Below are positions 4,496 through 63,319 of a DNA stretch of 64,000 bases, piece by piece (within the stretch, counting starts at the first letter, position 1; every line of letters begins with the position of its first letter). Source of the stretch: a bacterium (GTDB lineage Bacteria > Zhuqueibacterota > Zhuqueibacteria > Residuimicrobiales > Residuimicrobiaceae); assembly GCA_029565685.1 (NCBI GenBank), contig JAKQNR010000022.1, forward strand, positions 556,035 to 620,034, given 5' to 3'. The translations under genes were made by a program, and so were the position numbers. The notes beneath the pieces were generated by a model. It did no database searches, was not told where the DNA came from, and worked only from the letters and a program-made list of their open reading frames with translations.

Positions 4496-4501
4496 TTGAC
4501 T

Positions 4502-12170: not shown

Positions 12171-12189
12171 AGCAGAACTCCTTATAAAG

Positions 12190-14133: not shown

Positions 14134-14387
14134 GATAGCGTCGTCACTCGGACAAATATGTGGGCCGCCATGCAGCGGCTGAGGGCGATGTCCGCCTGAT
14201 TGACAGTCAACAGCAGGGGGCCGCCCAGAACCGCATTCCGCTTCAGTCGGACGATGTCGCCCACATGCAGGCCGACTTGTTGCAGCCGCTGGCGAAGCCC
14301 CCATCCTCCGGAGAATGCCACGATCGTTGCCGCTTGTCCGACTTTTAATTGGTTCAACGTCGGCAGAATCTTTTCTTCACGCATCAT
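14130..14387 (-). CDS. feoA: FeoA-domain protein
   Basis: 85 aa. 'LNQLKVGQAATIVAFSGGWGLRQRLQQVGLHVGDIVRLKRNA' is an SH3-like FeoA motif. Translationally coupled to feoB. Confidence 0.85.
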   Translation of the reverse strand: MMREEKILPTLNQLKVGQAATIVAFSGGWGLRQRLQQVGLHVGDIVRLKRNAVLGGPLLLTVNQADIALSRCMAAHIFVRVTTLS

Positions 14388-47322: not shown

Positions 47323-48295
47323 TTTGCTGCAGCAACTCGCTGATATAAAAAACGTTCTCCTTGGGCGTTTCATAGGGAAGAACGCCGGTGCCGATGCAGA
47401 CTTTTTCCCGCTGTGCAGCCAATGCAAGCATACGCCGGACTTCTCCGGCGATCTCCTCACGCGTGCCCTCGGATACAATGCGCGAGATCATATTGATTCG
47501 AATCATCACTTCAGGGTGCGCCTTGGCTTTATCTAGAAACTGCTGTTGGTCGGTCTCAGCCGGACAGATCAGATAGGTGGCGCCGGTGGAACAGAGTTCA
47601 TTCACCAGCAAAGCCGTATCGCCGCCGATGATCAACGCCGGCGTGAATCCCTGAATGCGGCCGGCCAAGGCAACCAGTTGAGAAAGCGCAGGCAACTCTA
47701 TCTGCGTAAAGATATCCGGCGAAATGAGCGGCGGAGTGGCCGCTGATTCAAATAGAGTGACTTTGAGTCCAGCATCTTGAATGGCCTGCAAGAATCCACG
47801 CTGATAGACCGCCAATCGTTGCAGACCCTGTGCCAACAGATCCGCCTTTACCAGCGCGGCATAAAGCAGGGTTTCAAAACCAAGCAGGACCGAGGCCATG
47901 GAAAACGGTCCGCTGACCGGTATGCGCACATCGGCTTCCGGGAAACGGGCTTTCAGGCGTTGCCCTACGCGGATCAGCATACCGATGCGGCCGGCCGTGT
48001 TCGGATCAAACGGTTCGAGTTCCAACAGCTGCGTGGGATCGTGAAACAGCGGTACGGTGATAGTCGGGATGCCGAATCCTTCCGTCGGGGTCACCTGGGC
48101 GCCATAGGCCTCCGCCTCTGGATTATAGATATCGATGCCCACCGTGACCGGAGTGTGATGGTAGAGCTCATAGGCCGCGGCATGAGCCTGATAAAGCAGA
48201 TCCTCGTTTCGCGAAACCTCCCAGGGCGTGCGATGAATGACAGCAGCCGCATGTTCATAGACCGCTGGCTGAAAAAAAAGTGCGGGGTCTCGCAT
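47315..48295 (-). CDS. Uroporphyrinogen-decarboxylase (URO-D) family protein, paralog 1
   Basis: URO-D/MtaA-like TIM-barrel signature with a C-terminal GxG-rich region ('IGTGVLPYETPKENV'). ATG 48295 gives an ATGA overlap with paralog 2. Confidence 0.65.
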   Translation of the reverse strand: MRDPALFFQPAVYEHAAAVIHRTPWEVSRNEDLLYQAHAAAYELYHHTPVTVGIDIYNPEAEAYGAQVTPTEGFGIPTITVPLFHDPTQLLELEPFDPNTAGRIGMLIRVGQRLKARFPEADVRIPVSGPFSMASVLLGFETLLYAALVKADLLAQGLQRLAVYQRGFLQAIQDAGLKVTLFESAATPPLISPDIFTQIELPALSQLVALAGRIQGFTPALIIGGDTALLVNELCSTGATYLICPAETDQQQFLDKAKAHPEVMIRINMISRIVSEGTREEIAGEVRRMLALAAQREKVCIGTGVLPYETPKENVFYISELLQQNG

Positions 48296-49440
48296 CAATA
48301 GTCCCTTGTTTTGTGATATTCATCGAGCATGGCCATATAATTGTCGTATTGGCTGCCCACAGCGATGGAATGGCTGGCGCCAAGGATAAAGCGTCCCCCT
48401 TCTTTGGCGTAGGCCATGGCGGAGCGAACGTCGCGGCGCACATCCTCCGGCGTGCCGCTGATCAAATGTTCGACGGCAACGCCGCCCCAGAGGGTGATCT
48501 TGTCGCCATAGCGCTGTTTCACTCGAGCCAAATCCATGTCAGCGGTCGGCTGAATGGACTGATAGGCGTCATAACCGATCTCGATAAAATAGTCCAGCAG
48601 ACGCCAGACATTGCCGCAGCAATGTTTCATGATTCTTTGACCATAGGTCGATTTGATATGGCGGACCCGCTCCTTGTTGGCGTCAAGATAAAAATCGCGA
48701 AACATGGCAGGACTGATAAAAGGTCCGGTCTTGTACGCGAAATCGTGTCCCCAGAGTACGGCGTCGGCCTTGGGGTGGACCCATCGTTCATCCGCTCGTT
48801 TATACTGGTTGGCGTAGAATTGAACCGCCTTGCGGATCAGCTCCGGGTCTTCCATTAAAGTGATCATGCCCTTTTCCATGCCGCCCGGCAATACAATGCC
48901 GATCTCGCCTCCAGAGGGGCCGCAGATGAACTTTTCACCATGAAAGGTCTCGATCACGGTGTTCAGAATATGCCAGGAACGTTCATCGAGCTGCGGCAAA
49001 GGCGGCTCGCCTTCAAACTCCTCATGGCGAAAAACCTTTTCCTGCATGACCGGATCATGAATGCAGGTGATATCGGCGGTAAAATCAGAATATTTGTAGA
49101 TTCGCCCTTGCCGGTCCTGCCAGGTGTTTTCATCCAATCGCTGCGGCGGATCCTCGATGGGCAGAGGGATCTCCCAAGTAGCCATGGGAAAGGTAATGAT
49201 GTCGAGATCCAGTTTGCGATGCAGGGCGATATGATCTTCCAGGTAGCTTTGCACCACTTCATCCTGACGCCCCTCCCAAAAGGCGATCTGCGATTTGGCT
49301 TTGGCCCGCAAATAGGTTTCATGACCGAGAATCTTTTCCACAGTATCGAAATCGACGGCGAATTCGCCGATGGGAACCCGGTCAGGAAGACGGCCGGAGA
49401 GCACGGCATGTACCCGCTCTTTCGCAGTCATCGATACCAC
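48295..49440 (-). CDS. URO-D family protein, paralog 2
   Basis: 381 aa. Similar fold signature ('KHCCGNVWRLLDYFIEIGYDAYQSIQP'). Overlaps paralog 3 by 13 nt. Confidence 0.65.
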   Translation of the reverse strand: MVSMTAKERVHAVLSGRLPDRVPIGEFAVDFDTVEKILGHETYLRAKAKSQIAFWEGRQDEVVQSYLEDHIALHRKLDLDIITFPMATWEIPLPIEDPPQRLDENTWQDRQGRIYKYSDFTADITCIHDPVMQEKVFRHEEFEGEPPLPQLDERSWHILNTVIETFHGEKFICGPSGGEIGIVLPGGMEKGMITLMEDPELIRKAVQFYANQYKRADERWVHPKADAVLWGHDFAYKTGPFISPAMFRDFYLDANKERVRHIKSTYGQRIMKHCCGNVWRLLDYFIEIGYDAYQSIQPTADMDLARVKQRYGDKITLWGGVAVEHLISGTPEDVRRDVRSAMAYAKEGGRFILGASHSIAVGSQYDNYMAMLDEYHKTRDY

Positions 49441-50495
49441 CCCTCTTGCATCGCCGTCTCGTACATGGCCAGCACATTTTCAGTGGGGGAGTTGTCCTGG
49501 ATTTCATGCGTAGGCGCCAGAGCGTAACCGCCGCCCGGCATCATAATCTCCAGCGTGGATTGGACGATTTTGCGGACCTGGTCCACAGTGCCAAAGGCCA
49601 ATTCGCCGGCGGTGGAAATCATGCCATGGAAAGCCAGTTTGGCGCCGTAGCTCTTTTTAAGAAAGGCCGGCGCCATGTCTTGAGCCTCAGGTTGCAGGGT
49701 GTCGACTACAGAGACGCCCATTTCGATAAAGTCATTGAACGCCCAGCTGCTGGAGCCGCATGAATGTATCATCACCGGCAGGTTGTAAGACTTGGCCAGA
49801 TCGATGAATTTCTGATGTCTGGGACGAATATGCTTGCGATAGAGGTTGAGGCTGATCGTCGGACCGCGCTGAGTGCCCAGGTCTTCGCCCATCCAAAAGA
49901 GATCGACGGCGCCCTTGCCGGCCTCCAGGATGCGTTCCATGATCTGCAGCCACAGGTTGGTGCAGCGATCGATCAGCAGCAAACCAGCCGGTTCATCCAG
50001 CATAAGATCGACCAGCACCTGTTCCATGGTGCGCAGCATGCCTATGGAATTGATAATGTCGCCGACACCAGGGTGCCCGACGACAACGCAATAGTCTTTG
50101 TATTGACGGCTTAAATGGGCGATGGCGGAATAGTCGAAATCGTCCGGATTCGGCAGCTTCCAATTGGCGACGGTTTCGATGTCGGCGTTTTGCAGCGGCC
50201 AGGTGCAATAGTCCCAATAGCCGCCCCAGTCGTGTTGAACCCAGCGTCGATGGCGGCCAAAGTTATCGACGGTGATGCCCGGCAGATCCTGGTAGAGTTT
50301 TTGCCCGATGTAAGGCGCATCGATGGCACGAAAGTCAACGCCCAATCGTTGCCGCAAGGCCTCATCGTCGTTCTGGTTAAGGCCGAAATGATCTTTGAGC
50401 CGGGCATCGATAGCCGGATTGTAGAGATAATTAATCGGCACACGATCCGGAATCGCATGGCCGAATGCGGTTAACACACGGTCTTTGGATTTCAT
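49428..50495 (-). CDS. URO-D family protein, paralog 3
   Basis: 355 aa. 'MIHSCGSSSWAFNDFIEMGVSVVDTLQPE' parallels the other two paralogs. First gene of the operon, preceded by a 342-bp intergenic region. Confidence 0.65.
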   Translation of the reverse strand: MKSKDRVLTAFGHAIPDRVPINYLYNPAIDARLKDHFGLNQNDDEALRQRLGVDFRAIDAPYIGQKLYQDLPGITVDNFGRHRRWVQHDWGGYWDYCTWPLQNADIETVANWKLPNPDDFDYSAIAHLSRQYKDYCVVVGHPGVGDIINSIGMLRTMEQVLVDLMLDEPAGLLLIDRCTNLWLQIMERILEAGKGAVDLFWMGEDLGTQRGPTISLNLYRKHIRPRHQKFIDLAKSYNLPVMIHSCGSSSWAFNDFIEMGVSVVDTLQPEAQDMAPAFLKKSYGAKLAFHGMISTAGELAFGTVDQVRKIVQSTLEIMMPGGGYALAPTHEIQDNSPTENVLAMYETAMQEGWYR

Positions 50496-50837
50496 ATTCT
50501 AACTTACAAAAAAAATAGAGAAAAAGAAAAGAATTTATTTTGACGATACGAGGAAGGAATTAAAAAATGCACCGAGGCGTTGGTGAGCAGCATAGATCAT
50601 CGTGGGCATCGACCGCACCTCATCCCATCGACGCTGCTTCGATTAGTGGAGGCAGCGGAATCAAAAAGTCGGCGCCATGTTCTGCTGTTGGATAGATCCG
50701 TGGATGATCGGCGATGCATTTGACGCCGCCGGCCAACCATTTAGAATCAATCCATTTTGGGCAAGAGCTTTTGCAGAACAGTAAAAATTGTTTCAGCCCA
50801 AGGATGCAAAAAGGGTATCACAAAAGGATCAAAAAGG

Positions 50838-52328
50838 TTATGGCTTTTTTGCTTCATTGATCGCCCGCGCGCGCAACCTTCCTAGAAAACCCTTAATCTC
50901 TGGATTGAGATCGCTTAACATCTTGATGTAGCTTTGTTCCGCGAAATCGACCTCCACCTGGCGGATGTTGACCGGATCGATTCTTAGGGCCTTTTGGCAT
51001 TCCTCATAAGCAGGATAGGTTATGGCGGTGACGCCAGGGAAAACCCCATTATCGATCAGGGTCTTGGCGAGCAGCAACGCGATATAATAGTTTCCCAGAT
51101 CATTGGGATGAACATGGTCGATGAACAAGGATGGCTCAGGATAGGTTCGCTGCGAATGTTGGACAAAATAGGATTCCACATCCGCCAGCATTACAGAATG
51201 CCGGGAGGCCAGATCGCGGCAGATCATAGGAAAATAAGTGCGTGCGCGGAACGGCAAAAGGTCGTAATCTTTAGCCTGCAGCAACGAAAGGCCGGCGCTT
51301 TCATAATCTTTCTGCCGCACGAACGCCATACCGGCATGATAACTGACGCTGGCGTTGGTGGAATCCAATTGGTAGAGACGCTGCCAAATTTCCAGGGCCT
51401 TTACCATATCGCCCGAATTAAACGCGGTTTTGGCTTGTGCGTCGAGCGAGTCCCAGTTGACGATGGTGCGTTTATCGCCAACAAACTGATTTTTTGAAAT
51501 AAAAGGCGGAAAAGTCCAATTGGAAACCGGAGTGCACAGCATGACCTGAATATCATGTTTGCGTGCCAGCCGGATCAGGTCTTCTAGATTGCGGCGATAA
51601 TTATCGGCTACCACCTGATTCAAAGGATCCTGAAACGCCACCGTATTGCGCTGGCTCCATTGCAGGTCGTTCGCCGTCCGGATGCTGCTGCGGGGGGTGA
51701 TCCAGCGTATCGCTTTCAGCATTCCCTGATAGAGAAAAGTCCGGCGCAGGCCCATAAACAGGGCGTACAAAGTCCGATTCTGATACAGCGCGGTTTTTTC
51801 CTTGGCAATGACAAATTCGTTGGGGCCGAAAAATTCATTATGACCGGAATAGACGATCACCAGATCCGGCTGATGCTTGATCAATGAAGAAAACACGTCC
51901 AAGACGTTCAGGCTGTTGAGGGCGTTGCAGCTGGCGTTGAGCAACTCGATTTCAGGCAGCGACCGGTTATACTGCAAAACTGCACGCAGATAATTCGGGA
52001 AAGAGGTCGGACACTCGAATTGGGGAAAGGTGTTGTAGGGATAGCCCGCCGGGGTGGATTCGCCGACGACAAAAATGCGGAAGCGTCCTCCCTTTTCCGC
52101 ATGAATGGCCCGATTGCTCGCCGAGGTCGGGAATAGGTCTTTTTTTTCAAAGAGAAAAAAATCGTTGAAATAGGATTGATTGAGATAAAAAGTGCCCTTA
52201 TTGCGATCCCGCTTCAACGGCTCAAAACGCTGGGTTGCCCGGTTGGCTAGAGACTCCAGGCCCAACCACAGTGCCAACGGTAGAATGAACAGGATCGAAT
52301 AAAAGAGTATTTTTTTTGATCGCTTCAC
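50838..52328 (-). CDS. SGNH/GDSL-type hydrolase-fold membrane protein with TPR region
   Basis: N-terminal TM. 'IFVVGESTPAGYP' (block I Ser). 'VIVYSGHNEF' (block II/III). 'IDHVHPN' (block V Asp/His). TPR-like C-terminus. GTGA overlap with the lipoprotein gene. Confidence 0.65.
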   Translation of the reverse strand: MKRSKKILFYSILFILPLALWLGLESLANRATQRFEPLKRDRNKGTFYLNQSYFNDFFLFEKKDLFPTSASNRAIHAEKGGRFRIFVVGESTPAGYPYNTFPQFECPTSFPNYLRAVLQYNRSLPEIELLNASCNALNSLNVLDVFSSLIKHQPDLVIVYSGHNEFFGPNEFVIAKEKTALYQNRTLYALFMGLRRTFLYQGMLKAIRWITPRSSIRTANDLQWSQRNTVAFQDPLNQVVADNYRRNLEDLIRLARKHDIQVMLCTPVSNWTFPPFISKNQFVGDKRTIVNWDSLDAQAKTAFNSGDMVKALEIWQRLYQLDSTNASVSYHAGMAFVRQKDYESAGLSLLQAKDYDLLPFRARTYFPMICRDLASRHSVMLADVESYFVQHSQRTYPEPSLFIDHVHPNDLGNYYIALLLAKTLIDNGVFPGVTAITYPAYEECQKALRIDPVNIRQVEVDFAEQSYIKMLSDLNPEIKGFLGRLRARAINEAKKP

Positions 52329-53320
52329 GAATTGGCCGCAGACGATGAGGTGACGGGTTCAAAAACTTTTAAATGTTCCAGGGGATGCGAGACCATCAGG
52401 TAAAAGCGGTCGCCCGCGACGACGAATTTATGATACCAGGGCGCCCAGGGCTCGGCATCGATGCCGATGGTGACGGCCTGAGGAAGTACAAAGGACTTGA
52501 TCCGGTTGAATTTGAAATCATACTGGTCTATGGTTTGGCAAAAAATCGTTTCGTTGGTGAGCTCCGGATTGACTCGCAGAATAAAGATCCCCTGCTCATT
52601 CACATACATGTCTTCCATATGGAAAACAAAGGTCGTGGTCTCTGAATTGCGTATCGGCTCCAGTTTCTTTTTCAACAGCAGCTTTCCAGAGCGATCATAA
52701 AGAAATGCAGAGTCTAAAAGTGTTGGAACATAGGCGATATCGCCCGTGGGCGTGAAGGCGGCAAAAGCGAAATCCACACCGGCTAACTGGTAAAAAGCGC
52801 TGCGCGGCGAACGAAAGGTGTTCAGGAGCGCGCCGGAATCATCGTAGATTTCCAGGCAATAGCCGAATTGGGCTTTATCGCCCATACGGTTGACGAGGAT
52901 CAGCCCATCCGGAGATACCGTGACAGCGCCGCGTCCACCGATAGGGATGCTTTTGCGGAATTGTCCGTCCAGCGAGTAAAACTGCAACGAACCGAGATTG
53001 TGCAGGATCAGGGTGGTGTCGATAATTTGCACAGTGGATGGACGGTTGACATAACCATCCCCCGAGCCATAGGCGATCAGCTCTTTGATAAAAGCTCCGG
53101 TGGCGTCGAATTTGCTCACAGTGGATTTGTCCACATCGAGAATGTAGAAATTTCCGGTCCGGTCCATGGCCAGGTGTTTGACTCTGCTGAAAAATTCCTC
53201 CGTAGCGGCGGCTGGTATTTGCAGATGAAAATCGGTTTGATTTAATGGGATGCTCGGCGTTTTGCCGCATGAAGCGAATAAAGCCGCGAAGAGGATGAGG
53301 AGCGGTATTTTTTTCAACAT
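52325..53320 (-). CDS. Lipoprotein, predicted beta-propeller (NHL/TolB-like repeats)
   Basis: Lipobox 'LFASCGK'. Repeated 'G..Y.LD' beta-strand units. No catalytic motif recognised. Confidence 0.55.
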   Translation of the reverse strand: MLKKIPLLILFAALFASCGKTPSIPLNQTDFHLQIPAAATEEFFSRVKHLAMDRTGNFYILDVDKSTVSKFDATGAFIKELIAYGSGDGYVNRPSTVQIIDTTLILHNLGSLQFYSLDGQFRKSIPIGGRGAVTVSPDGLILVNRMGDKAQFGYCLEIYDDSGALLNTFRSPRSAFYQLAGVDFAFAAFTPTGDIAYVPTLLDSAFLYDRSGKLLLKKKLEPIRNSETTTFVFHMEDMYVNEQGIFILRVNPELTNETIFCQTIDQYDFKFNRIKSFVLPQAVTIGIDAEPWAPWYHKFVVAGDRFYLMVSHPLEHLKVFEPVTSSSAANS

Positions 53321-53444
53321 AAGGCCTATCTCATCAATACGGGTATAAAAAACGGGAGATTCGCAAGCGAAGATCGGTTGCGAATCCCCCGCCGTTTATA
53401 TAGGCTTCTGCGAGCAATGAAATCCTCGCAGAAGCCATTATACC

Positions 53445-54497
53445 TTAGAACTTGAACGAAACCGACAGACGATTCACATCATCCATCAGGTCGAATTGCG
53501 ACCAGCTGTAATCGACGACCAGATCGTGGCCGCTGTAAGGCAGCACGATGCCGGCGCCCAGAGACAGGCCTTCGTCGGTGCGAGCATAGGTCTTTTGATC
53601 GTACCAGTGATCGCGAGTGACTTTTTCAACAATCTGGTAAGAGGAGCGGGGACCAAACTCGTCCTTCATGCCCATATAGTTGAATTTGTAGCCGGCGCGA
53701 AAACTGATGTTTTTCAGCAAGGTGGCTTCTAGACCGCCAAGAATCATCTGATCGGCGTCCAACGGTTTGGTGGCGTCCACATAACCTTTGAACGAGAAAT
53801 CGTCGGATTGGATCATGCTCATGGAAACACCAAAGCTGAACACCATCGGCAGGCTGAACGGCACGTAATAGTACTCGAGATCGCCGCCCAGATTCTGGAT
53901 GCGGGCGCCGATGGCCAGATCGCGGTAGCCGAGCATATAGATGGCGCCGAAATCGAAAGCCAAAGTTCCAACGGTTTCCACATCGATTTTCTCGCTGTAG
54001 TACTTAACCGTGGCGCCCATCGACAGTTTGTCGGTGAATTGTCTGGCATAGCTCAAGCCGATGACGGCGGAATTGTAATCGAACATGGCTGCGTCCGAAT
54101 ATTCCACTCCTTCCAGACCAGGCTGAACGTCGCGGTTGGCTTCGATATCATTGATGCCGGACATCAAGCCGCCCAGGGCCAGAGTTCCCCAGCTGCCAAA
54201 AGAGTGCGACACCGCAAACGCGTTGTGGTTGATGTCCGCAATCCATTTGTTGTAGGAAAAAGTAACCTGGGTTTCTCCTTCCGGCATAGAGATGCCGGCT
54301 GGGTTCCAAAATAACTGATTGACGTCGTTGGTCACAGTCGTGATGGCCGAACCGATACCGACCGCTTTGGCGCCGACGCCTACTTTCAGAATCGACGCGC
54401 CCGAGATTCCCGTTTTTTTCATAGTCTGCGGGAAGGCGGCAACGGCAAGCACCAGCAGAAAGACGACCAACAGCGTGGAGATTGATTTATGTCTCAT
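53445..54497 (-). CDS. PorV/PorQ-like outer-membrane beta-barrel (T9SS-associated shuttle-like)
   Basis: Signal peptide. 'GISGASILKVGVGAKAVGIGSAITTVTNDVNQLFWNPAGIS' is the family N-terminal signature. Terminal aromatic 'VSFKF'. Confidence 0.65.
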   Translation of the reverse strand: MRHKSISTLLVVFLLVLAVAAFPQTMKKTGISGASILKVGVGAKAVGIGSAITTVTNDVNQLFWNPAGISMPEGETQVTFSYNKWIADINHNAFAVSHSFGSWGTLALGGLMSGINDIEANRDVQPGLEGVEYSDAAMFDYNSAVIGLSYARQFTDKLSMGATVKYYSEKIDVETVGTLAFDFGAIYMLGYRDLAIGARIQNLGGDLEYYYVPFSLPMVFSFGVSMSMIQSDDFSFKGYVDATKPLDADQMILGGLEATLLKNISFRAGYKFNYMGMKDEFGPRSSYQIVEKVTRDHWYDQKTYARTDEGLSLGAGIVLPYSGHDLVVDYSWSQFDLMDDVNRLSVSFKF

Positions 54498-54538
54498 AGA
54501 GCATCTTCTCCTTCAAATAATAGGCTGTTTCATTAGAC

Positions 54539-57052
54539 TTAGCGTTGAATGGCCAAATAGCCCTTTTGTTGGCCGCCGGGATACTCCGCTAGCCAAATGT
54601 ACAAACCGCTGGCAACTTCGGGACCGTCTTTGGTGAACATATCCCAGAACAGAGCGCCGTTGGTCGGGTCTGTACCTTCGTACTCGAGCACTTGCATAAT
54701 CTGGCCGGACAGATCCAGAATGGTAATACGGGTGTCGGAGGTCAGGTTGTAGAACTGGATTTTGTGCTCAAGGCCGACATCATGAGGAGCCTGCACTTTG
54801 TAAGGATTCGGTTTGACCATGATTTTCTTTTCGCCCTTGACCAATGTGGAAGCAGCGACGCGGGGCGGCTGCAGCACAAAGTTGGCGCCAAGGTATTTCT
54901 TGCCAGCCAGATCGGTCGTGGGATACTGGGCGGCGCCGGAGGCGAAATGATAGGTGCCGTACCAACGGCCGTCACGGCCGTTCCAGTTGTCTTTGTGCGT
55001 TTCCAGGCTGGTGAAGGGTACGCCGGCCACCGTGCCGGATTCATTGTCAAAAGCCGCTACATAGTACCAATAGGTATAGCCGGTTTTAACCTGCTCATCC
55101 ATATCTACGAACTGATAAGGATAAGTGGCCTTTTCGCTGCCGGTATTCTGATATTCCGCCTTGGCCAAATCCGCCTTAGGAATATAGGCGATGATCTTCC
55201 ACGGCCCGGAGGGATTGGCATCCCAGTCGATGCGGAAGCTGGCCGGGCGGCTGTAGTTGGGGTTAATGGGTTTGCTGTATCGGGATTCCAACTGATCATC
55301 GGTGGCGCCGATGTCGGCAGCGGTCTGATGATGATAGTTATCCAGATAGCGGATGCCGAACTTTTCGTAATTGACTTTCGGATAAGCCGTGGTGCGATAG
55401 ATCTTGTAGCCGGCGAAATCCGGCGCCGTTTCGGCAACCTTGTTCCAAATGACCTGAGTCTTATAACCGCCTTGAGCTTCCACCGCGTTCAGCTTCATAT
55501 CCGGCATCGGTGGAGGCACCGGCAGATTCCAGCCGTTTGCATAAGCGTAACGGGCGGTTTTCAGCGATTGACGCATACCGGCCAGACGATAACCGGCGTA
55601 TTCAACCCAGACAATGGTCATGGTTTCGCCGACCTTCAACGCAAAGGGGCCGACGCCGTTGTTGCAGTTGCCGTCAAAGTTGTAATAGGTCGGCGGCATA
55701 CCGCCGTCGGTCCAGGTGTCTGCATCCGGGATTGGCGGGTTGGTTTTGCCAGGAAAGTTCTTCTCCCAGTTCTGCAGCCACTTGCGGGTGTATTTCATAT
55801 CGCCCATGGGCTGACCGCGTTCCGCCTCGGGTTTCACAATGCTGACGAAAGAGAGCGGATCGCCGGGGGTGTAGGGTTTGGTAACGTCGAAATAATTGGG
55901 ATCAGGTTTCACTTCACTCAAGGCTGAAACCTGCCAGCTTTTTCCGCCGTCTTCATACCAGGTGCCGGAGGCCAACAGGAACGCCAGATAGGGTTTGCTG
56001 CACCCGCCGCTGGGGAACTCGCGAGTGACCGAGGTGTACCAGCCGCGCTGAGCGCCCTCACCGATGGGGTGGCTGTCGAAGATGGTCTTTTTATCCGGCG
56101 CCGCAATGCCCAGATCCATGGGCCCTTGCTTGACCGCCAGATAGCTGGAACCGTCCCACAGATCACGGTTCACGCCGCGTCCGTCGCGATAACCGATTTT
56201 GCGTTCGCCGTCCGGCGCCCACAGATCAGCGCCGACGAGCGACTGAGTAACATTGGTATCGAATTCAAAGGTGGCATCCCAGGGATTGCCATCCGGATCC
56301 GGGCTGGCGTCATAGCCGGACATTCTTGAAGTCGCCCAGGATTGATTCCACCGGTTGCCGGCGGTGTTGTTGAACATGGAGCCGATGATCTCTTTGCTTT
56401 CAATCACCGTAAGAGCTTCGATGTCATGATTGGTGCGTTCATAGACGCCGTCGCCGTTGGTGTCCTGGTTGCCGGTGTTGGTCAGCTGCAGTTCCATGGC
56501 AATCCAGTCGTTCATGTTGGCTTCATTGCAGTTGAAAGCACGCACGCGCATCTTGACGTCCACGCCGATGTTGGTCGGGAAAGCGCACTCGTAGACCATC
56601 TGATTGCGATCTGTGGCGCTCTTCCAGGGAACGCCGCCCTTGGCATCGGCGTTGGTGGACACGCCGCCCAGGACCGTGAGCCACGAAGCGTTGATGAACT
56701 GCTTCGCGCGCGGATCGGTATCCGTGGTGAAATTGTTGAAATTAGGGATTTTGCTGTATTCGGTCATGACGAAATTATGACCCCAGGGAATGTTGACTTC
56801 GGAACCGCTGGGATACATTTTGGTCGGCGTTGTCCATTGACGTTCCAAGCAACCCAATTTCATCAAATTGGTGTTTTTTGAAGGATCCGTATTAGACTCG
56901 CCGGAGTATTTAAAGACCGCGGTGGGGGCAAAGCTGTCCCAGAGGTCGCCACAGGTCATTACACCGACCCCAGGATACTCTGCGGCAAAAACCGACCCGG
57001 CTAATACCCATGTAAAGATTAGAAAGCCAAGGAATCGTTTTGTCTTGTTCAT
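54539..57052 (-). CDS. Large secreted protein of unknown function with T9SS type-A C-terminal sorting domain
   Basis: Signal peptide 'MNKTKRFLGFLIFTWVLAGSVFA'. 837 aa rich in Trp/Tyr/Asn/Gly with no recognisable catalytic motif. C-terminus 'ITILDLSGQIMQVLEYEG...ASGLYIWLAEYPGGQQKGYLAIQR' is Por_Secre_tail-like. Confidence 0.7.
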   Translation of the reverse strand: MNKTKRFLGFLIFTWVLAGSVFAAEYPGVGVMTCGDLWDSFAPTAVFKYSGESNTDPSKNTNLMKLGCLERQWTTPTKMYPSGSEVNIPWGHNFVMTEYSKIPNFNNFTTDTDPRAKQFINASWLTVLGGVSTNADAKGGVPWKSATDRNQMVYECAFPTNIGVDVKMRVRAFNCNEANMNDWIAMELQLTNTGNQDTNGDGVYERTNHDIEALTVIESKEIIGSMFNNTAGNRWNQSWATSRMSGYDASPDPDGNPWDATFEFDTNVTQSLVGADLWAPDGERKIGYRDGRGVNRDLWDGSSYLAVKQGPMDLGIAAPDKKTIFDSHPIGEGAQRGWYTSVTREFPSGGCSKPYLAFLLASGTWYEDGGKSWQVSALSEVKPDPNYFDVTKPYTPGDPLSFVSIVKPEAERGQPMGDMKYTRKWLQNWEKNFPGKTNPPIPDADTWTDGGMPPTYYNFDGNCNNGVGPFALKVGETMTIVWVEYAGYRLAGMRQSLKTARYAYANGWNLPVPPPMPDMKLNAVEAQGGYKTQVIWNKVAETAPDFAGYKIYRTTAYPKVNYEKFGIRYLDNYHHQTAADIGATDDQLESRYSKPINPNYSRPASFRIDWDANPSGPWKIIAYIPKADLAKAEYQNTGSEKATYPYQFVDMDEQVKTGYTYWYYVAAFDNESGTVAGVPFTSLETHKDNWNGRDGRWYGTYHFASGAAQYPTTDLAGKKYLGANFVLQPPRVAASTLVKGEKKIMVKPNPYKVQAPHDVGLEHKIQFYNLTSDTRITILDLSGQIMQVLEYEGTDPTNGALFWDMFTKDGPEVASGLYIWLAEYPGGQQKGYLAIQR

Positions 57053-57098
57053 CCTATTTCTCCTCTTATTGGCAATTTTTTAATTAGCCTGTTGCCGG

Positions 57099-60059
57099 TT
57101 AAAACTGGAACTCGAAACCTGCGTACAGTTCGCGCGCGATGCCGAGGTACGGGTTGCCGTACTGATCCACAGCACGATAGTAGGGACCGTAAGGATCTCC
57201 GCCCAATTCGTACCGGGTGTCATAGTTGGTGGCATCGAAATTGAGGATGTTTTCGCGATCGAGAACGTTCAAGGCCTCGGCAAAGATACCGACCTTGGTG
57301 CCGCCGATCTTGAAATACTTGGTCAAACGCAGATCAGCCTGCAGGAAATAATCGCCGTTGAGTTTCTCTTCGTACCGCTGGTTGGTGATGCCCACGGTTT
57401 TGTTGAAGCGCCATGGGCTCTTGTAGGTGGTCATGGAAGAGAGCCTGAGGTCCAGCGGCAGATCGAACAGCAACGTCAATTTGCCCTTCCAGTCGTTGTA
57501 GCCGCGGGCGTAGCTGGGCCAAATATAAGCGAGGTCCCAGTCGTAGGCATCATCCTGGGTGTTGTAGTACAGGGTGTTGCGAGCGTTTTTATTATCGGGC
57601 GCCAGGCTCAGCGCAGCAGTGGATCCCTTATCATAGGCATAGGAAACACTCAGGTTGCCGGAAACGCCCAGGAAGCCAAAATACTTTTCGGCGGACGGAC
57701 GTTTCCACAGGTTCAACTCGATGCCGCGGCTGTCGCGATAACCCCAGGCTTTGTAATAGGTCGAGCTGCTGAAAGCGATCTTGTTGACATTCAGCGTATA
57801 GCCGGCAGTGCCGGAATTCCTCGTATCACGATAGTAAGCGGTGATGTCGAAATTCCAGTCTTTGGCAAAAGATACGTTCATGCCGATTTCGTAAGCGGTC
57901 GCGGTTTCCGGATCCGGATCATACAGATACCATTCCGGAAGCGACGGGTTGCTAAAGTACCCGTAATTTTTCAGCGTAGTGCCAAGGTAGGGGCGGGTGG
58001 TGTAGATGCCCCAGCTGTAGTGCATGGCGGCGTTTTCGGTGATGGGATGAGAGATGCCCAAACGGGGGCTGAAATAGATGCGGGTTTCCGCATCCACCTC
58101 TTTTTTCATGCCCAACACCACCTGGCTGTTGGCCAGCGTATCAATCACAACCGGATCCAGTGCATTTTTGGGCATCTGGGTGTCCATGTTGTAGGCATCG
58201 ATACGCATACCGGCGTTGACGATGATGCCCTGGTATTCGATGCGATCCTGAATGTAACCGCCTGCATTCCACGGATTGAGTTTGTAGATAACCGTCTCAT
58301 AGGGGAAGAATTTGTCGTAACCAGTCACCGACGAGGCCAGTTCGTACCAATCAATGGTGTTGTAATCGTACTGCACGCCGGCTTTAAGCTGGTGATTGAA
58401 ATTGATCTGTTTGGTGAAGTTGCTCTGGAACGTAGCCGTGTTCGATTTGACGTCTTCATAGAGATAGCCCGGCAGACCGACGCGGATCTGGTTGCCCCAG
58501 TCATCGATCTGATAATTCTGATCGTTGCCAGGGGTTACGTTGAAAATACGGGTGGTGGTGTTGACAAAGTACTTATCGACCAGCTCTTTGGTGTCAAGGA
58601 TCATCCAGTCGCCGTAGTTGTTATACTGCAGCTTGCCATCCACCGGGCAATAGCCGTAGGTGCGATGGTTGTTGACGTAGCTGACCGTAGTCTCCAAAAA
58701 GGTGGAAGCGTTGAAGAATTTATTCCAGCGCAGATAACCCATGGCGCCTAGGCGATCGTTGACCGGCTGACCTTCCAGGAAGAACTGGTACATGTAGGTG
58801 TACTGACGGTTTTTCCAACCGAACAGCTTGCCGCCGTCATCCAGTTTGCCCATCAGGGTGAGCTTGTTGGTCGGGGTCAGGTCATAGTTCAATTTAAGCG
58901 AGGTGCCGACATTGCGCTGAAATTCTCCGGGGAAACGGCCGTGATCGTTAAGCAGATTGCCGGTCAAGAAAAAATTGCCCTTGGAGGTCAACGGACCGCC
59001 GAAGAACATTTCCGCATTGATGCGCGGATCGTCGCCGTATTCGTACTTGTCCGGAGTCCAGTCAAAGTACGCGGCCTTGGCCTGATCCTTGGCGCTGGTG
59101 GAGTTCAACAGCTTTTGTTTGTAATCGTTGTACACTGTCGCGGCGGAACGACCGCCCATACGGGAATCCGGAGGAACTCCGTCATAGACGTTCGGGCCGG
59201 CATGATCCAATCCACCCATGCTGGAACGGACGAACACTTTGCCTGAATATTTATCGCCGCCGCTGCGGGAGGCCAGGTTGACGATACCGCCGGAGGCGGA
59301 ATATTCGGCGTTCAGCGTGCCGGCGATGACGTTGACTTCCTGAACCTGGCTTTGGGCTACATTCACCGAAGTCTGCACCATGCTGGCGGTACGGCCGCTC
59401 TGGTTTTCAGAGGTTTCCCATTCGCCGGTGGTGCTCATACCGCTGTTGTCGGTGTGACGCACATTGGTGTACGCGGTGCTTCTCATACCAACCGCGAACA
59501 TCGGATCCGTGACGTTGACGCCGTCCACCAGGTAGCCGACGCCGACTTTATTGGCGCCGCGCATGGCCTGGGTGGTCACCGAGCTCTGCAGCACTTCGTT
59601 GAGACTGGCGACAGGCAGGGTGTTGTCAATGATTTCATCGGAAAAGGTCACTTTGGTGGCCGTCATGGTTTTATCAATGGGGGGGCGTACAGCCACAACG
59701 GTCATGGTTTCGCCCGCGATCACCGTCTGTTTCAGTTTGGCGGATAGTTCCGTGGTGCGGTCCAAGTTGACTACCACACCCTGCACATCCTGACCAGTGT
59801 AGCCCATGAAGGAAAACTTGACCGTGTAGGTGCCCGGAGGAACGTTCAGGATAAAGTATTGACCCTGAATGTTAGTCACCGCGCCCATTTGGGTTCCGGC
59901 AATCTGCACGTTCACGCCGGGAAGGGGTTCGCCGGTAGCGGCATCCGTCACCGTTCCCGAAACTTTGCCCAAAGCGGCAAAAGCCGGAGATCCAAATAAA
60001 ACGACGCACAGCAGACTTGCAACGAATGTCACAAGCAGCTTTTTCGAGATTTTCCTCAT
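57099..60059 (-). CDS. SusC-like TonB-dependent receptor with CarboxypepD_reg domain
   Basis: Start at the MRKISKK ATG (60059) with GGAGGA RBS. Signal peptide. 'VSGTVTDAATGEPLPGVNVQIAGTQMGAVTNIQGQYFILNVPPGTYTVKFSFMGY'. ~1000-aa barrel ending 'AGFEFQF'. Confidence 0.85.
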   Translation of the reverse strand: MRKISKKLLVTFVASLLCVVLFGSPAFAALGKVSGTVTDAATGEPLPGVNVQIAGTQMGAVTNIQGQYFILNVPPGTYTVKFSFMGYTGQDVQGVVVNLDRTTELSAKLKQTVIAGETMTVVAVRPPIDKTMTATKVTFSDEIIDNTLPVASLNEVLQSSVTTQAMRGANKVGVGYLVDGVNVTDPMFAVGMRSTAYTNVRHTDNSGMSTTGEWETSENQSGRTASMVQTSVNVAQSQVQEVNVIAGTLNAEYSASGGIVNLASRSGGDKYSGKVFVRSSMGGLDHAGPNVYDGVPPDSRMGGRSAATVYNDYKQKLLNSTSAKDQAKAAYFDWTPDKYEYGDDPRINAEMFFGGPLTSKGNFFLTGNLLNDHGRFPGEFQRNVGTSLKLNYDLTPTNKLTLMGKLDDGGKLFGWKNRQYTYMYQFFLEGQPVNDRLGAMGYLRWNKFFNASTFLETTVSYVNNHRTYGYCPVDGKLQYNNYGDWMILDTKELVDKYFVNTTTRIFNVTPGNDQNYQIDDWGNQIRVGLPGYLYEDVKSNTATFQSNFTKQINFNHQLKAGVQYDYNTIDWYELASSVTGYDKFFPYETVIYKLNPWNAGGYIQDRIEYQGIIVNAGMRIDAYNMDTQMPKNALDPVVIDTLANSQVVLGMKKEVDAETRIYFSPRLGISHPITENAAMHYSWGIYTTRPYLGTTLKNYGYFSNPSLPEWYLYDPDPETATAYEIGMNVSFAKDWNFDITAYYRDTRNSGTAGYTLNVNKIAFSSSTYYKAWGYRDSRGIELNLWKRPSAEKYFGFLGVSGNLSVSYAYDKGSTAALSLAPDNKNARNTLYYNTQDDAYDWDLAYIWPSYARGYNDWKGKLTLLFDLPLDLRLSSMTTYKSPWRFNKTVGITNQRYEEKLNGDYFLQADLRLTKYFKIGGTKVGIFAEALNVLDRENILNFDATNYDTRYELGGDPYGPYYRAVDQYGNPYLGIARELYAGFEFQF

Positions 60060-60267
60060 ACTTTGAGTCCTCCAAATTTTTTGTTTTTGACTCGTTGGTA
60101 CTCTGTTTGAAAGAGTCACGTCCTGTACCGATTCGCCTGGTTGCCGGGCGCTGTGCGTCCCGGTAGTTCCAGCTCACTCTTTCTGCCTGTTGTACTCTCC
60201 TTTTCCTTCTCCTCCTTATGGTTTAGCTGATTAAGTTGATTAAATGAGTCTATTAACAGATATATGG

Positions 60268-60315
60268 CTAAAAAAATAAAAAGGCGAATGAGAGAAAAGT
60301 GTGCTCTCATCCGCC
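60268..60315 (-). terminator. Rho-independent terminator (minus strand) in the 400-bp spacer
   Basis: Minus strand reads GGCGGATGAGAG-loop-CTCTCATTCGCC (one mismatch), then TTTTTATTTTTTT. Separates the pfkB/GT operon from the TonB-receptor operon promoter region. Confidence 0.5.
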
Positions 60316-60518
60316 TGGGATCAATTGCCCGTTTTGAATATAAATTTCGTATGGCCAGCGTCTCATGGTACTTCTCATCTTCTTGGATGATTCCTTGTTG
60401 AAAAGTACGTTTGCTTGAATATTAGATAAATGTTAGGTAATTTATTTTAATAAATCAAGACTTTTTTTATTTGCTCACGTGCGCAGAAAAAACGGACGAA
60501 TTTATATCAAATTGTTTT

Positions 60519-61556
60519 TTAATGAGTTGGCCTATTGTTCATATAAAGAACTATCTCCCGCTCCTGTTTCATGGCGCCTGTGGCAGATACATCCGCCAAA
60601 CTGATAGCGGCGGCGGCGGCCGCGAAGCGCAGGCAGTCCGCCAGAGGCCAAGATTGGTGAAGACCATGCAGAATGGCCGCGGAAAAAGCATCCCCTGCAC
60701 CGGTATTTCCCATGTACTCTTGCTCCGGAACGACAAAGTTGGGCTGGACGATCAATCCGGTTTCTCGGCTATAAGCATAATTAGGTCCCCTGCTGCCGCA
60801 GTGTACGACCGCGCAACCTACCTGAAAGGTACGCACCAGGCTTTGGCAGGCCTCGGCTGGATCCGTTCGCCCAGTGAGGGTGCAAGCCTGATCGTCGTTG
60901 ATGCAACAAATATCCAAAAAGTGCAGTGCATCACGATAGCGCAAAAATTTCCAAAGGTTGTCGGCGGTGGGCGTGACAAAATCCAGCGCGGTCCACAATC
61001 CCATCGCCTGCGCTTTCGCCAGGCTGCGCCCCATCACGGCGCCATAGTCCGTATCAGCAAGATCGAACTGAGGCATTAAAAGTCCGTAACCGAACTGGAC
61101 GATCTTGTGACCTTGCAAAACGTTAAAATCGATATCCTTTTCCGAAAAAGAGCCCATTGCGCCGAGAGTATGACGGAAGATGCGTTCGATTGATCCATCC
61201 GGCATCCTGATGTGCACCACCTCGGTGCAGGAGGTCACGTTCTGCATATCCACTATCAGATGTGAATCCGAAATGCCGTTTTCCACCAACTGCCGGCGGA
61301 CAAGCTCCGCCCGATGATCGGTCCCGATTTTGCCTATGACGGTGATTGGATATCCGCCGCCGATTTTGGCCAGATCCAAGCCGACATTCAAGGCCATGCC
61401 GCCGGTGCTGTAAACAAGTTCTTCACCCGCCAATTCCTGCGCATCGACGAATCGGCCGGCGTCGACGTAGGAGAGCTGGCCCGGTGCGATCGCCGGCGTT
61501 AATTCATCCACCACGCAACTTCCGATAAGGGCGATGCCGTTTCTTTTCGCAACCAT
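60519..61556 (-). CDS. PfkB-family carbohydrate kinase
   Basis: 'MGNTGAGDAFSAAILHGL' GAGD motif. Ribokinase-like fold. ATGA overlap with the upstream glycosyltransferase gene. Confidence 0.8.
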   Translation of the reverse strand: MVAKRNGIALIGSCVVDELTPAIAPGQLSYVDAGRFVDAQELAGEELVYSTGGMALNVGLDLAKIGGGYPITVIGKIGTDHRAELVRRQLVENGISDSHLIVDMQNVTSCTEVVHIRMPDGSIERIFRHTLGAMGSFSEKDIDFNVLQGHKIVQFGYGLLMPQFDLADTDYGAVMGRSLAKAQAMGLWTALDFVTPTADNLWKFLRYRDALHFLDICCINDDQACTLTGRTDPAEACQSLVRTFQVGCAVVHCGSRGPNYAYSRETGLIVQPNFVVPEQEYMGNTGAGDAFSAAILHGLHQSWPLADCLRFAAAAAAISLADVSATGAMKQEREIVLYMNNRPTH

Positions 61557-63319
61557 CACTGTACACCTTTCTCAGAGTGGAAATCGGATGAAAAAGGAGC
61601 GACCTGCCGGACTAGGGAGGCGTACGATTCAGCGGTTTTGCTCCAGCTGAATCGGCTTGCCTGGAGAAAACCCTGTTGCACCATGGCATAGTAACGATCC
61701 GGCTGATTCCGGTAGAGCGCGCTTGCCTGGATGAGACAGTCGGCCAAAGAGTCGGCCATCGCATTGAACCAGGCATTTTGTTTGCGCAGTGCTGCGATGG
61801 GGGTGGACATAAAAGCTTTGATCCCTTCGGGGCTTGCTGCGTCAACCGGCTCGCGATAAAGCAGTCCGCTTACATTTGCTTCTATTTGATCGATCAGCCC
61901 TCCGGTCGCGCGGGCAATGGTAACCGTGCCGTTGGCCATGTACTCGATGGCGGCGCCGAACGGCTCATAGATCGACGGCATCAGCCCAAAAGTGCTTCCC
62001 GCCTGCAATTCCGCATAGCCCTCTTTCATGCGCATGGGAAATACGGTGAGATTGCCACGGCATTTGCAGGCGACTTGATAAAAATAATCTAAATCCGCTG
62101 CGCGCACCGGCATAGGCGTCAAGACCGCTTTGATCTCGTCTTGGCTGAATTTCTCCAGCGCAGACAACAGCACATCAAATCCTTTTTGCATCAGGTCAAG
62201 ACGGCCGCTCATCACCAAAATCGGCACGTCGTCGGGCAAATCGGCCAACGGTCCTCTCCGCCAGCTGAGTTCGCCGAAACGCTCAGTCGGTTGATAGGCG
62301 TCCAAAATCTGCAACAGCTGATGACGGTTTTTTAACTTGATCTCTCGTAGTTCGTGAAGAGTATGGTTTTCCTTTTTGGGGAACTGGTTGGAAAAGGAAA
62401 TGAACGGTCCGTTATTGACGCCTCGCACTCCATTCTTGAGGAAATAAGACTGCAAATGCGGAGTGAAATGGACGGTCTGCAGAGCATCTTGAGTGAACTC
62501 TTGGGCGAAGGTGTCGCTCACCGTGGTGATGGGCGCATCGATTAGGGAGAGACCGATCTGGTAGGCAGTGGCGCCGGAATAGAGAAACCGACTGACATGA
62601 TCCGCTTTTTCCCGCGGCACCACCTTTTGCAGGGCGGCACAGCTGAGAAACGCGTCATAGGGATTGTGCAGGGTGATCATGGACAGACAGGATTTGACTA
62701 TTCCAGACAGCATCGCCTGTTTGCCGGTAAGCGCCAGCAATGCTGTTTGCCACTCCTGCAAATGCAGGACGCTTCCCTCCTCTAATCCGAGCGCCTGCAA
62801 GGCGTAAGGAACCGCCTGGCAGAAGAAAAGCGAATTTTCCACCAAAGCTTTCTGATTCTCCACCGGCTGGCCAGGATAATAGAGATAGGGATCGCCGATG
62901 GCATTTTGGGCGTTGAAGTAGCCATCCGCTTTGATATAGTACTCTTTCATGCCGTTCTGCGCAGACGCCTGGTTCGGCGGAATAAATTGATACAGCTCAG
63001 TTTGAATCAGGCTGTCGGCAAATGGCACCAACCATTCGTGGCCGGTCTTTTGCAGACGATCGGCGTCCATCAGATGGGGATAATACGGCGTGAACAGCTG
63101 CACCGACTGATACAGACCGAGCGCCTGCGTGTAAGGAAGGATATTGACCGTGACTGCAGCCAGGCCGCCACTTTTGGCGAATCGGTTTTCAAAGGAACAG
63201 TAGCAATAATGGCGGGCGCGAAAATGTCGATAAATTTGGCGAAGTTGTTCCGCCTCTACACCGGTAAAATACAGGCCCAAGCTGCTCCAATCGCGCTCAA
63301 AACCGGAAGGATTATGCAT
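61556..63319 (-). CDS. Glycosyltransferase, glycogen/starch-synthase-like (GT-B, GT5/GT4-related)
   Basis: N-terminal 'FAKSGGLAAVTVNILP' (compare KTGGL of glycogen synthases). C-terminal 'GLMPSIYEPFGAAIEYMANGTVTIARATGGL'. Confidence 0.7.
   Translation of the reverse strand: MHNPSGFERDWSSLGLYFTGVEAEQLRQIYRHFRARHYCYCSFENRFAKSGGLAAVTVNILPYTQALGLYQSVQLFTPYYPHLMDADRLQKTGHEWLVPFADSLIQTELYQFIPPNQASAQNGMKEYYIKADGYFNAQNAIGDPYLYYPGQPVENQKALVENSLFFCQAVPYALQALGLEEGSVLHLQEWQTALLALTGKQAMLSGIVKSCLSMITLHNPYDAFLSCAALQKVVPREKADHVSRFLYSGATAYQIGLSLIDAPITTVSDTFAQEFTQDALQTVHFTPHLQSYFLKNGVRGVNNGPFISFSNQFPKKENHTLHELREIKLKNRHQLLQILDAYQPTERFGELSWRRGPLADLPDDVPILVMSGRLDLMQKGFDVLLSALEKFSQDEIKAVLTPMPVRAADLDYFYQVACKCRGNLTVFPMRMKEGYAELQAGSTFGLMPSIYEPFGAAIEYMANGTVTIARATGGLIDQIEANVSGLLYREPVDAASPEGIKAFMSTPIAALRKQNAWFNAMADSLADCLIQASALYRNQPDRYYAMVQQGFLQASRFSWSKTAESYASLVRQVAPFSSDFHSEKGVQ

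Follow-up and report, generated by a model that had tools for sequence, protein, structure and literature searches.

Work on type IX secretion systems (T9SS) and on nutrient uptake in the Fibrobacterota-Chlorobiota-Bacteroidota (FCB) group rests largely on Bacteroidota, where SusD-type surface lipoproteins serve TonB-dependent transporters (TBDTs). The T9SS cargo of Bacteroidota is released, linked to lipopolysaccharide (LPS), or held by PorP-like barrels. Here, we analyzed an operon in a 64,000-nucleotide stretch of contig JAKQNR010000022.1 (assembly GCA_029565685.1); the whole stretch is called the window hereafter. The first three genes of this operon encode a TBDT, a secreted protein of 837 residues that ends in a T9SS-like C-terminal domain (CTD), here called CTD*, and an outer-membrane barrel of the PorV/PorQ family. 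These three genes recur together across phyla, and in the full-text literature we found no description of a trio made of a TBDT, a CTD protein, and a PorV/PorQ barrel.

Four kinds of described systems come close to the trio. Barrels of the PorV family are CTD-binding proteins. In the T9SS attachment complex of Porphyromonas gingivalis, PorZ and PorU retain their C-terminal beta-sandwiches and are held at the surface by 14-strand barrels of the PorV/PorQ family, PorZ sitting on PorQ and PorU on PorV (PMC10202324, PMC11285876). The trio is similar in that its tail resembles the CTD of PorZ and its barrel passes the PorV/PorQ family model. It differs in that the pair is encoded adjacently behind a TBDT and exists in several paralogous versions with different heads, in that there is no match to PorZ outside the tail, in that the PorQ and PorV equivalog cut-offs are missed, and in that its hosts are mostly FCB phyla other than Bacteroidota. 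In the type B systems, such as SprB-SprF and PG1035-PorP, the tail is a secretion and targeting signal, and the cargo is carried and anchored by a cognate, adjacently encoded PorP/SprF-like barrel that is specific to it and needed for secretion or anchorage, whereas the general PorV is said to be the carrier of type A tails (PMC9143113, PMC12618676). The trio also has its barrel gene beside its cargo gene, but the barrel is of the PorV/PorQ family and has no PorP/SprF match, the tail matches no type B model and has a type A-like PNP...GxY layout, and type B systems involve no TBDT.

The SusC/SusD pairs (e.g., RagA/RagB) share with the trio a TBDT with a CarboxypepD_reg N-terminal extension and, directly after it, the gene of a large surface protein which differs from one paralogous locus to another. 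Unlike them, the trio has no SusD fold or family, its partner protein is a Sec/CTD protein instead of a lipoprotein, a third gene encoding a barrel is obligatory, and the SusC model failed. Finally, Oar of Myxococcus has an N-terminal extension (NTE, PF13620), a plug, and a barrel, the architecture called the Oar subclass of TBDTs (PMC6434023), and the transporter of the trio is built in the same way. Yet, Oar has neither a CTD protein nor a PorV-like neighbour, and the receptor of the window lacks a match to the Oar-like barrel. The trio, which is widespread, belongs to none of SusC/SusD, the PorQ/PorV equivalogs, PorP/SprF, or the type A and type B tail models.

A conserved unit of three genes

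The operon comprises five consecutive open reading frames (ORFs), found on the minus strand at 50838-60119 in the six-frame ORF list (Table 1). The ORF coordinates confirm the layout given in the first-pass annotation of the window: the spacers are of 46, 41, and 124 nt in gene order, and the last two genes share 4 nt (52325-52328, GTGA). That annotation had regarded all five genes as one system, which was not borne out, since the conserved unit consists of the first three genes only. Promoter and terminator consensus scans of the region 50300-60700 returned counts that match the shuffled expectation (9 vs 9.5 and 13 vs 12, respectively) and are thus uninformative as to transcription units.

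Table 1. Genes of the operon, and domains within them, in window positions
Feature	Position	Strand	Description
TonB-dependent transporter (TBDT)	57099-60059	-	986 aa from ATG 60059; signal peptide, NTE, plug, beta-barrel, C-terminal Phe
NTE, CarboxypepD_reg-like domain of transporter	59703-59963	-	residues ~33-119; PF13715 69.7 bits, PF13620 67.7; model strands 31-109
Putative TonB box (ETMTVVAV) and plug of transporter	59208-59672	-	residues ~116/130-284; boundaries approximate; hhalign columns 20-269
837-aa secreted protein	54539-57052	-	signal peptide 1-23, head ~24-450, helix and Fn3-like module ~450-700, linker, CTD*
CTD*, T9SS-like C-terminal seven-strand beta-sandwich	54542-54823	-	residues 744-837 (94 aa)
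PorV/PorQ-family outer-membrane barrel, 350 aa	53445-54497	-	NF033709; proposed dedicated carrier/anchor for CTD*
Lipoprotein, 331 aa	52325-53320	-	lipobox LFAS|C; possibly NHL-type propeller; clade-specific accessory
GDSL/SGNH hydrolase, 496 aa, membrane-anchored	50838-52328	-	PF13472; weak TPR-like insert; clade-specific accessory

We scanned one genome per species for relatives of the 837-aa protein, which were present in 265 species-level genomes, and analyzed the best 80 loci, 79 of which are distinct. By the labels of their submitters, the 80 loci come from KSB1/Zhuqueibacterota, Calditrichota, Latescibacterota, Gemmatimonadota, Kryptoniota, and Bacteroidota. Among the distinct loci, a TBDT gene lies directly upstream of the homologue of the 837-aa protein in 65 of the 66 that were testable, with a median spacer of 31 nt, and a barrel gene lies directly downstream in 77 of 78, with a median spacer of 28 nt. 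This order of transporter, cargo, and barrel is far beyond chance. Conservation of the operon in related metagenome-assembled genomes (MAGs) had been proposed as a check, and the synteny across phyla strengthens the core of the initial proposal, i.e., a TonB transporter with a dedicated CTD cargo and a dedicated PorV/PorQ barrel, unlike any known polysaccharide utilization locus (PUL). The loci closest to the window, among them L012 with 95-97% protein identity to it, point to a bacterium of the KSB1/Zhuqueibacterota type. The pairwise distances of the three proteins are correlated (r 0.88-0.98), so the trio is inherited as a unit. The 106 homologues of the 837-aa protein that we collected range in identity between 31% and 90%, and the labels of their MAGs are KSB1, Latescibacterota, Gemmatimonadetes, and Bacteroidota. 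The submitter taxonomy of these loci is unreliable: one contig of 56,302 bp was deposited under two MAGs with the phylum labels KSB1 and Phycisphaerae (L083 and L084), the label "uncultured Cytophagia" is borne by several loci closely related to the window, and a few labels look like binning errors.

The barrel accompanies one kind of tail. In all loci examined, proteins with a CTD* profile score of at least 87 bits have a barrel, and those with a score of at most 26 bits have none. The distant homologues with a generic Por_Secre_tail (PF18962; P0105, P0101, and P0104) have no adjacent barrel and no TBDT in operon position. The window provides a natural control at 15078-17468 (plus strand), where a 796-aa tandem PLD/NucT-like nuclease with a type A tail (TIGR04183, 25.0 bits, above the cut-off of 23) is followed by a threonine dehydrogenase gene and has no adjacent PorV-like barrel. 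The canonical tail of this nuclease indicates that the organism has ordinary T9SS cargo.

Some genomes have more than one copy (L082 in tandem, L004, and L015 together with L028 in one MAG), and these tandem or second copies resemble paralogous uptake systems more than core machinery. L028 (JAKQNP010000010.1, 761-6960) is the sole locus with a specialised tail and no barrel. Its FWDMFSKDG motif is degraded to FWDLCNGAG, and its transporter lacks the NTE and is displaced by ~900 nt of non-coding DNA. This locus may be a decaying paralogue, or may borrow the barrel of L015, the complete locus of the same MAG.

The 837-aa protein had been described as domain-less, and Pfam indeed gave no match at E<10. 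Its AlphaFold2 (AF2) model (pLDDT 88.9, pTM 0.88) has a beta-rich head, a helix, a fibronectin type III (Fn3)-like module, and a terminal seven-strand sandwich. When the head was compared with the PDB in a fold search, the best template modelling (TM) score was ~0.2, with no glycoside-hydrolase or SusD fold. The absence of a SusD partner after the receptor, as initially claimed, was also borne out: no SusD-family Pfam model matched the five operon proteins or their neighbours, and the model of the 837-aa protein is beta-rich, not helical. We rejected an ordinary PUL, as the locus has neither SusD nor the fold of a carbohydrate-active enzyme.

The specialised tail and its barrel

CTD* carries the motifs PNPYK, HD.G.EHK, F.NL, ITI.D.SGQ, FWDMF.KDG.EV.SGLYI, and GG.Q.GY..I.R. 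In the model of the 837-aa protein, seven strands at residues 745-835 form an Ig-like 3+4 sandwich, which is the definition of the type A CTD fold (PMC11285876). Foldseek matched CTD* to the CTD of PorZ (5m11) with a probability of 1.0 over 107 columns and 21% identity, and a hidden Markov model (HMM) of the PorZ CTD matched it with an E of 2e-5. There was no match at E<10 to PF18962 in the tail, nor to the type B and CHU_C models in a 96-aa version of it.

CTD* is the most conserved region of the family alignment. The mean identity to the window is 63% for the tail vs 45% for the head, 26 of its 94 columns are at least 90% conserved, and its mean pairwise distance is 0.27 vs 0.47-0.53 for the head, the transporter, and the barrel. 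This is the opposite of what we would expect of a disposable secretion signal. The stretches of the tail modelled with the lowest confidence, 752-761 (pLDDT <50) and 801-810 (pLDDT 66), contain near-invariant residues (K752, A755, and D758; W803, D809, and G810). We read such loops, of low confidence and yet nearly invariant, as a surface that is ordered upon partner binding, and the model fits a role of both stretches in holding a partner.

These data bear on the possibility that the barrel is a transient private shuttle. It would draw the cargo from the T9SS translocon, after which the tail would be cleaved and the protein set free or linked to LPS; no stable ternary complex would form, and the TBDT would merely import the products of a free enzyme or binder. 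The tight linkage between tail subtype and barrel suits a shuttle as well as an anchor, and type B CTDs are an established case of cognate shuttles encoded beside the cargo (PMC12618676). However, a transient signal is not expected to be the slowest-evolving part of a protein, and the strict operon coupling to a TBDT in several phyla is more typical of the partners of a complex. Moreover, the known partners of PorV/PorQ-family proteins that have dedicated barrels, PorZ and PorU, keep their CTD (PMC10202324). We thus find a shuttle conceivable but rather unlikely.

The tail is also present in proteins with other heads. We searched 1.84 billion representative sequences with the 94-aa tail and obtained 611 proteins at E<=1e-3, including 40, mostly family members, at E<=1e-10. 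The tail profile matches 141 of 145 further representatives, and the domain lies at most 12 residues from the C-terminus in 131 of those 141; the proteins with such a terminal domain have between 408 and 3624 aa. The consensus of CTD* is VVPNPY.V.A.W....I.FT.LP..C.I.IF..AG.LV..L.H.D...G...WDL.T...Q.VASGLYIYVVETP.G..K.GKF.IIR. Pfam gave no Por_Secre_tail match and essentially nothing else in eight further carriers, and almost no matches in the heads of sister families. A very large carrier (P0422) scores just under the cut-offs of Por_Secre_tail and FlgD_ig and just over that of CHU_C, and these borderline scores link CTD* to recognised T9SS signals. One sister family resembles the window protein only in residues ~450-670 (helix and Fn3-like module) and in the tail, while the heads differ.

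The genes around these other-head proteins are the same. In four of them (1206, 1081, 1325, and 683 aa), a barrel matching NF033709 is encoded directly 3' in every case (110-250 bits), and the three with upstream sequence all have a CarboxypepD_reg transporter 5'. A metagenome scan with a narrower alignment of CTD* confirmed at least 584 stretches, and 80 loci were kept. A match to the barrel profile was found just downstream in 67 of 70 loci and a match to the transporter profile just upstream in 34 of 38, in a sample dominated by one sister family (40 of the 43 complete heads), so these statistics chiefly describe that family. One otherwise typical trio (L090) has a UPF0175/DUF3368 toxin-antitoxin-like pair at 5216-5943, between the transporter and the CTD* protein.

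The 350-aa barrel scores 153.1 bits with the PorV/PorQ family model (NF033709, cut-off 90). Ten further orthologous or analogous barrels pass the same model (110-250 bits), and NCBI gives the name "PorV/PorQ family protein" to a protein that is 100% identical to the one of the window. The window barrel is below the equivalog cut-offs of PorQ (NF033711, 75.2 vs 220), PorV (NF033710, 49.9 vs 250), and PorV2 (62.2 vs 325), and is nearer PorQ than PorV. PorP/SprF is not among its Pfam and NCBIfam hits at E<=0.01, and the FadL-type signal is below threshold only. Hence, the first-pass annotation was right to call it PorV-like as regards the family, to the exclusion of PorP/SprF and plain FadL, but it is not a PorV equivalog.

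Two other readings of the barrel should be considered. It might be a FadL-like diffusion channel for hydrophobic products, assisted in the KSB1 clade by an SGNH esterase, in which case the tail would be an ordinary signal served by the general PorV. PorV/PorQ proteins are within the FadL superfamily (PMC12578637), some of the orthologous barrels have faint Toluene_X/UPF0164 matches, and an esterase gene follows in the clade of the window. We regard such a channel as very unlikely, since the PorV/PorQ model is passed by a wide margin and the FadL-type models are not, the barrel tracks the subtype of the tail and not the head or the accessory enzymes, and the esterase is missing from most lineages. 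Alternatively, the 837-aa protein and the barrel might be the equivalents of PorZ and PorQ, i.e., a pair of the T9SS attachment complex and thereby core machinery, not a nutrient system. This would account for the PorZ CTD being the best match of the tail both by HMM and by fold, and for a barrel that is nearest PorQ. But only the tail resembles PorZ, with no match between PorZ and the rest of the model; the generic CTD of the nuclease, an unrelated protein of the window, matches the PorZ tail equally well. In addition, genomes have several paralogous copies with different heads, and a TBDT is attached throughout (65/66 and 34/38 loci in the two samples). An equivalence with PorZ/PorQ is therefore highly improbable.

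A second PorV copy had been placed at 4502-5755, which the scores do not support. The 419-aa barrel encoded at 4496-5755 (plus strand) is under every relevant cut-off (PorV_fam 25 vs 90, BamG 43 vs 250, Toluene_X 14.9 vs 29.7) and is predicted from its sequence to be a FadL-superfamily barrel of uncertain subfamily. Its best match, although sub-threshold, is BamG, and it could be a candidate for the barrel associated with the beta-barrel assembly machinery (BAM) that was recently described in Bacteroidota (PMC12578637).

The transporter and a proposed mechanism

The transporter ORF is open back to a GTG at 60119, which would give 1006 aa. The ATG used in Table 1 starts the protein with MRKISKK and begins a normal signal peptide (MRKISKKLLVTFVASLLCVVLFGSPAFA). 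Pfam detects only the CarboxypepD_reg domains (PF13715/PF13620) in this protein: its C-terminal 833 aa have no match at E<10, and Plug is not matched by the single sequence, although PF07715 is present in homologues. Four lines of evidence identify it as a TBDT. First, a profile of 18 orthologues matches the plugs of PfeA, FepA, and YncD in the PDB (E ~1e-4). Second, hhalign gives 98.7% over the NTE and plug between this receptor and a bona fide TBDT of the window at 9798-12170. Third, its orthologues and more distant homologues carry PF00593, PF07715, PF14905, and PF25183 and have the NCBI name "TonB-dependent receptor". Fourth, its AF2 model (pLDDT 86.8) has 278 Foldseek matches at E<=1e-3, and all 50 of the matches listed are TBDTs. 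The best of these are YddB (1e-28) and FusA (1e-27), with TM scores to the target of 0.5-0.74, and others down to E 1e-22 are PqqU, ButC, and several SusC structures (8aa4 and 5fq6 among the good ones). The strands of the barrel were not counted in the model; 22 are expected from the match to the TBDT fold. The sequence ETMTVVAV, between the NTE and the plug, is a putative TonB box, as suggested by its position and by a modelled beta-strand at 118-122.

The receptor had been called SusC-like. This was not borne out: the SusC/RagA model (TIGR04056) gives 49.2 bits, for a cut-off of 368.25, and covers residues 52-181 only, i.e., the N-terminal extension. By HMM, it is a generic NTE-bearing TBDT with the Oar-type architecture (NTE, plug, and barrel) and not a member of the SusC family. 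The model of the Oar-like barrel, PF25183, does not match the receptor of the window, whereas it does match distant homologues.

This architecture raises the question of the direction of transport. In Myxococcus, export of the protease PopC has been linked to Oar. The TBDT of the trio might likewise work outward, secreting or assembling the 837-aa protein independently of the T9SS, with the barrel as the docking site. The Oar-subclass architecture of the receptor (PMC6434023) and the PF25183 matches of its distant homologues are in line with this idea, and a T9SS is only presumed to exist in the trio genomes. Still, the 837-aa protein has several folded domains, and a plugged TBDT offers only a small lumen. 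PopC lacks both a CTD and a PorV-like partner, and the 837-aa protein has a tail with homology to T9SS signals. Furthermore, family members with generic T9SS tails occur without a TBDT, and the same window and loci also encode canonical T9SS cargo. We consider export by the TBDT quite unlikely.

We propose instead export of the 837-aa protein by the T9SS, followed by non-covalent anchoring of its uncleaved CTD* on a private barrel beside the TBDT. We give this reading about an even chance. Judging from their signal peptides, all three proteins of the trio would be exported by Sec. The 837-aa protein would then cross the outer membrane via the T9SS, using the C-terminal beta-sandwich as a signal. 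CTD* would neither be passed to the general PorV nor be cleaved by PorU; it would be kept non-covalently by the private barrel, much as PorQ holds the uncleaved CTD of PorZ and PorP-like barrels hold type B cargo. Three things suggest this retention step: the family to which the barrel belongs, a tail that is extremely conserved, and the strict pairing of this tail subtype with the barrel. The 837-aa protein would thereby be tethered at the cell surface, next to the co-expressed TBDT. Its variable head would capture or process a substrate that the TBDT would import with TonB energy, a role analogous to that of SusD and of surface glycan-binding lipoproteins. This step is suggested by the structure of the operon and by a head that varies while the transporter and the barrel stay constant. 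The shared part, i.e., the helix, the Fn3-like module, and CTD*, would act as a stalk, and the substrate probably differs between lineages. Downstream of the trio, the organism of the window, which is of the KSB1 type, has in addition a lipoprotein that would face the periplasm and an SGNH esterase anchored in the membrane.

Several observations weigh against anchoring and capture by the trio. The first-pass annotation assigned a T9SS CTD to the 837-aa protein; structure and comparison uphold this assignment, but the type A HMM does not (TIGR04183, 13.2 bits vs the cut-off of 23). The focal family lacks in its CTD* the conserved beta7 lysine reported in the CTDs of P. gingivalis (PMC11285876), while sister families retain GKF. 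In a partial-correlation (mirror-tree) test, CTD and barrel showed no covariation in excess of that due to phylogeny (partial r 0.09 and -0.20). No binding or catalytic fold was recognised in the head, and a role in capture is proposed by analogy only. Lastly, a T9SS is presumed in the trio genomes only because the window and genes near the loci encode canonical Por_Secre_tail proteins; T9SS components may exist in FCB phyla outside Bacteroidota (PMC11285876).

A broader and more tentative interpretation, which we hold to be somewhat less probable than not, is that CTD* and its private barrel form a third branch of the T9SS, beside type A with PorV and type B with PorP. This branch would build fixed surface partners for TBDTs, and heads would be exchanged between paralogous loci to change specificity. 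If so, it would be the functional counterpart of the SusCD "utilisomes" in FCB phyla without SusD. The trio suggests that Latescibacterota, Gemmatimonadota, KSB1, Kryptoniota, and their relatives mount the surface partner of a TBDT via a secretion system. If this is true, uptake loci in phyla that are largely uncultured could be recognised by a genomic marker, and research on the T9SS would gain a new class of tail/carrier specificity. There would also be a set of large surface proteins, so far unannotated, with heads that probably define the range of substrates. Hundreds more metagenomic loci carry the sister family.

Accessory genes and genomic surroundings

The two last genes of the operon are clade-specific add-ons outside the conserved system. 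They are confined to the subclade of KSB1 whose identity to the window exceeds 50%, where they co-occur in 13 loci. The lipoprotein has no acidic residue after the Cys of its lipobox. It had been described as a beta-propeller, which was not confirmed, as there are only faint NHL/ScyF matches (NHL E 0.18 and 0.0013). The protein described as an SGNH/TPR hydrolase is a GDSL hydrolase (PF13472, 42.2 bits vs 32.9; PF00657, 31.7 vs 23.6), but its TPR part is weak (TPR_2, 19.2 vs 27).

The genes flanking the trio vary between lineages. In KSB1, the neighbours are GH38-like, SSS transporter, pfkB kinase, and URO-D paralogue genes. In the window, a sugar kinase of the pfkB family and a GT5/GT1 glycosyltransferase of 587 aa that resembles glycogen synthase (60519-63319, minus strand) lie upstream of the receptor after a gap of 459 nt; the kinase is kept in this place only in the nearest relatives (L007, L012, and L066). 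In the loci of Latescibacterota and Gemmatimonadota (e.g., L001, L002, L023, L033, L047, L085, and L089), a polytopic DUF6785/DUF6784 membrane protein often flanks the trio (30 loci). Other flanking genes there encode a 478-aa membrane protein (21 loci), a GFO/IDH/MocA oxidoreductase (17), and a 1470-aa fusion of an M28 peptidase with FtsX (12), and a class V aminotransferase is also found nearby. These proteins are possible inner-membrane or periplasmic partners, with a hint of a peptide or protein substrate in these phyla. We dropped the attempt to derive the substrate from the gene neighbourhood, as the hints are lineage-specific and mutually inconsistent.

Elsewhere in the window, the region 9798-14304 (minus strand) encodes a conventional 790-aa TBDT with a CarboxypepD_reg extension, adjoining FeoB. 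This TBDT (9798-12170) scores well on models of heme and siderophore receptors, and serves as an internal contrast to the focal receptor, whose barrel is divergent. At 47315-50495 (minus strand), directly downstream of the operon, there are three tandem paralogues of URO-D / MtaA-CmuA methyltransferases (327, 381, and 355 aa). In the loci of Kryptoniota and Bacteroidota, the gene after the barrel encodes a Meth_synt_2 protein, a family that we take to be in the same Pfam clan as URO-D.

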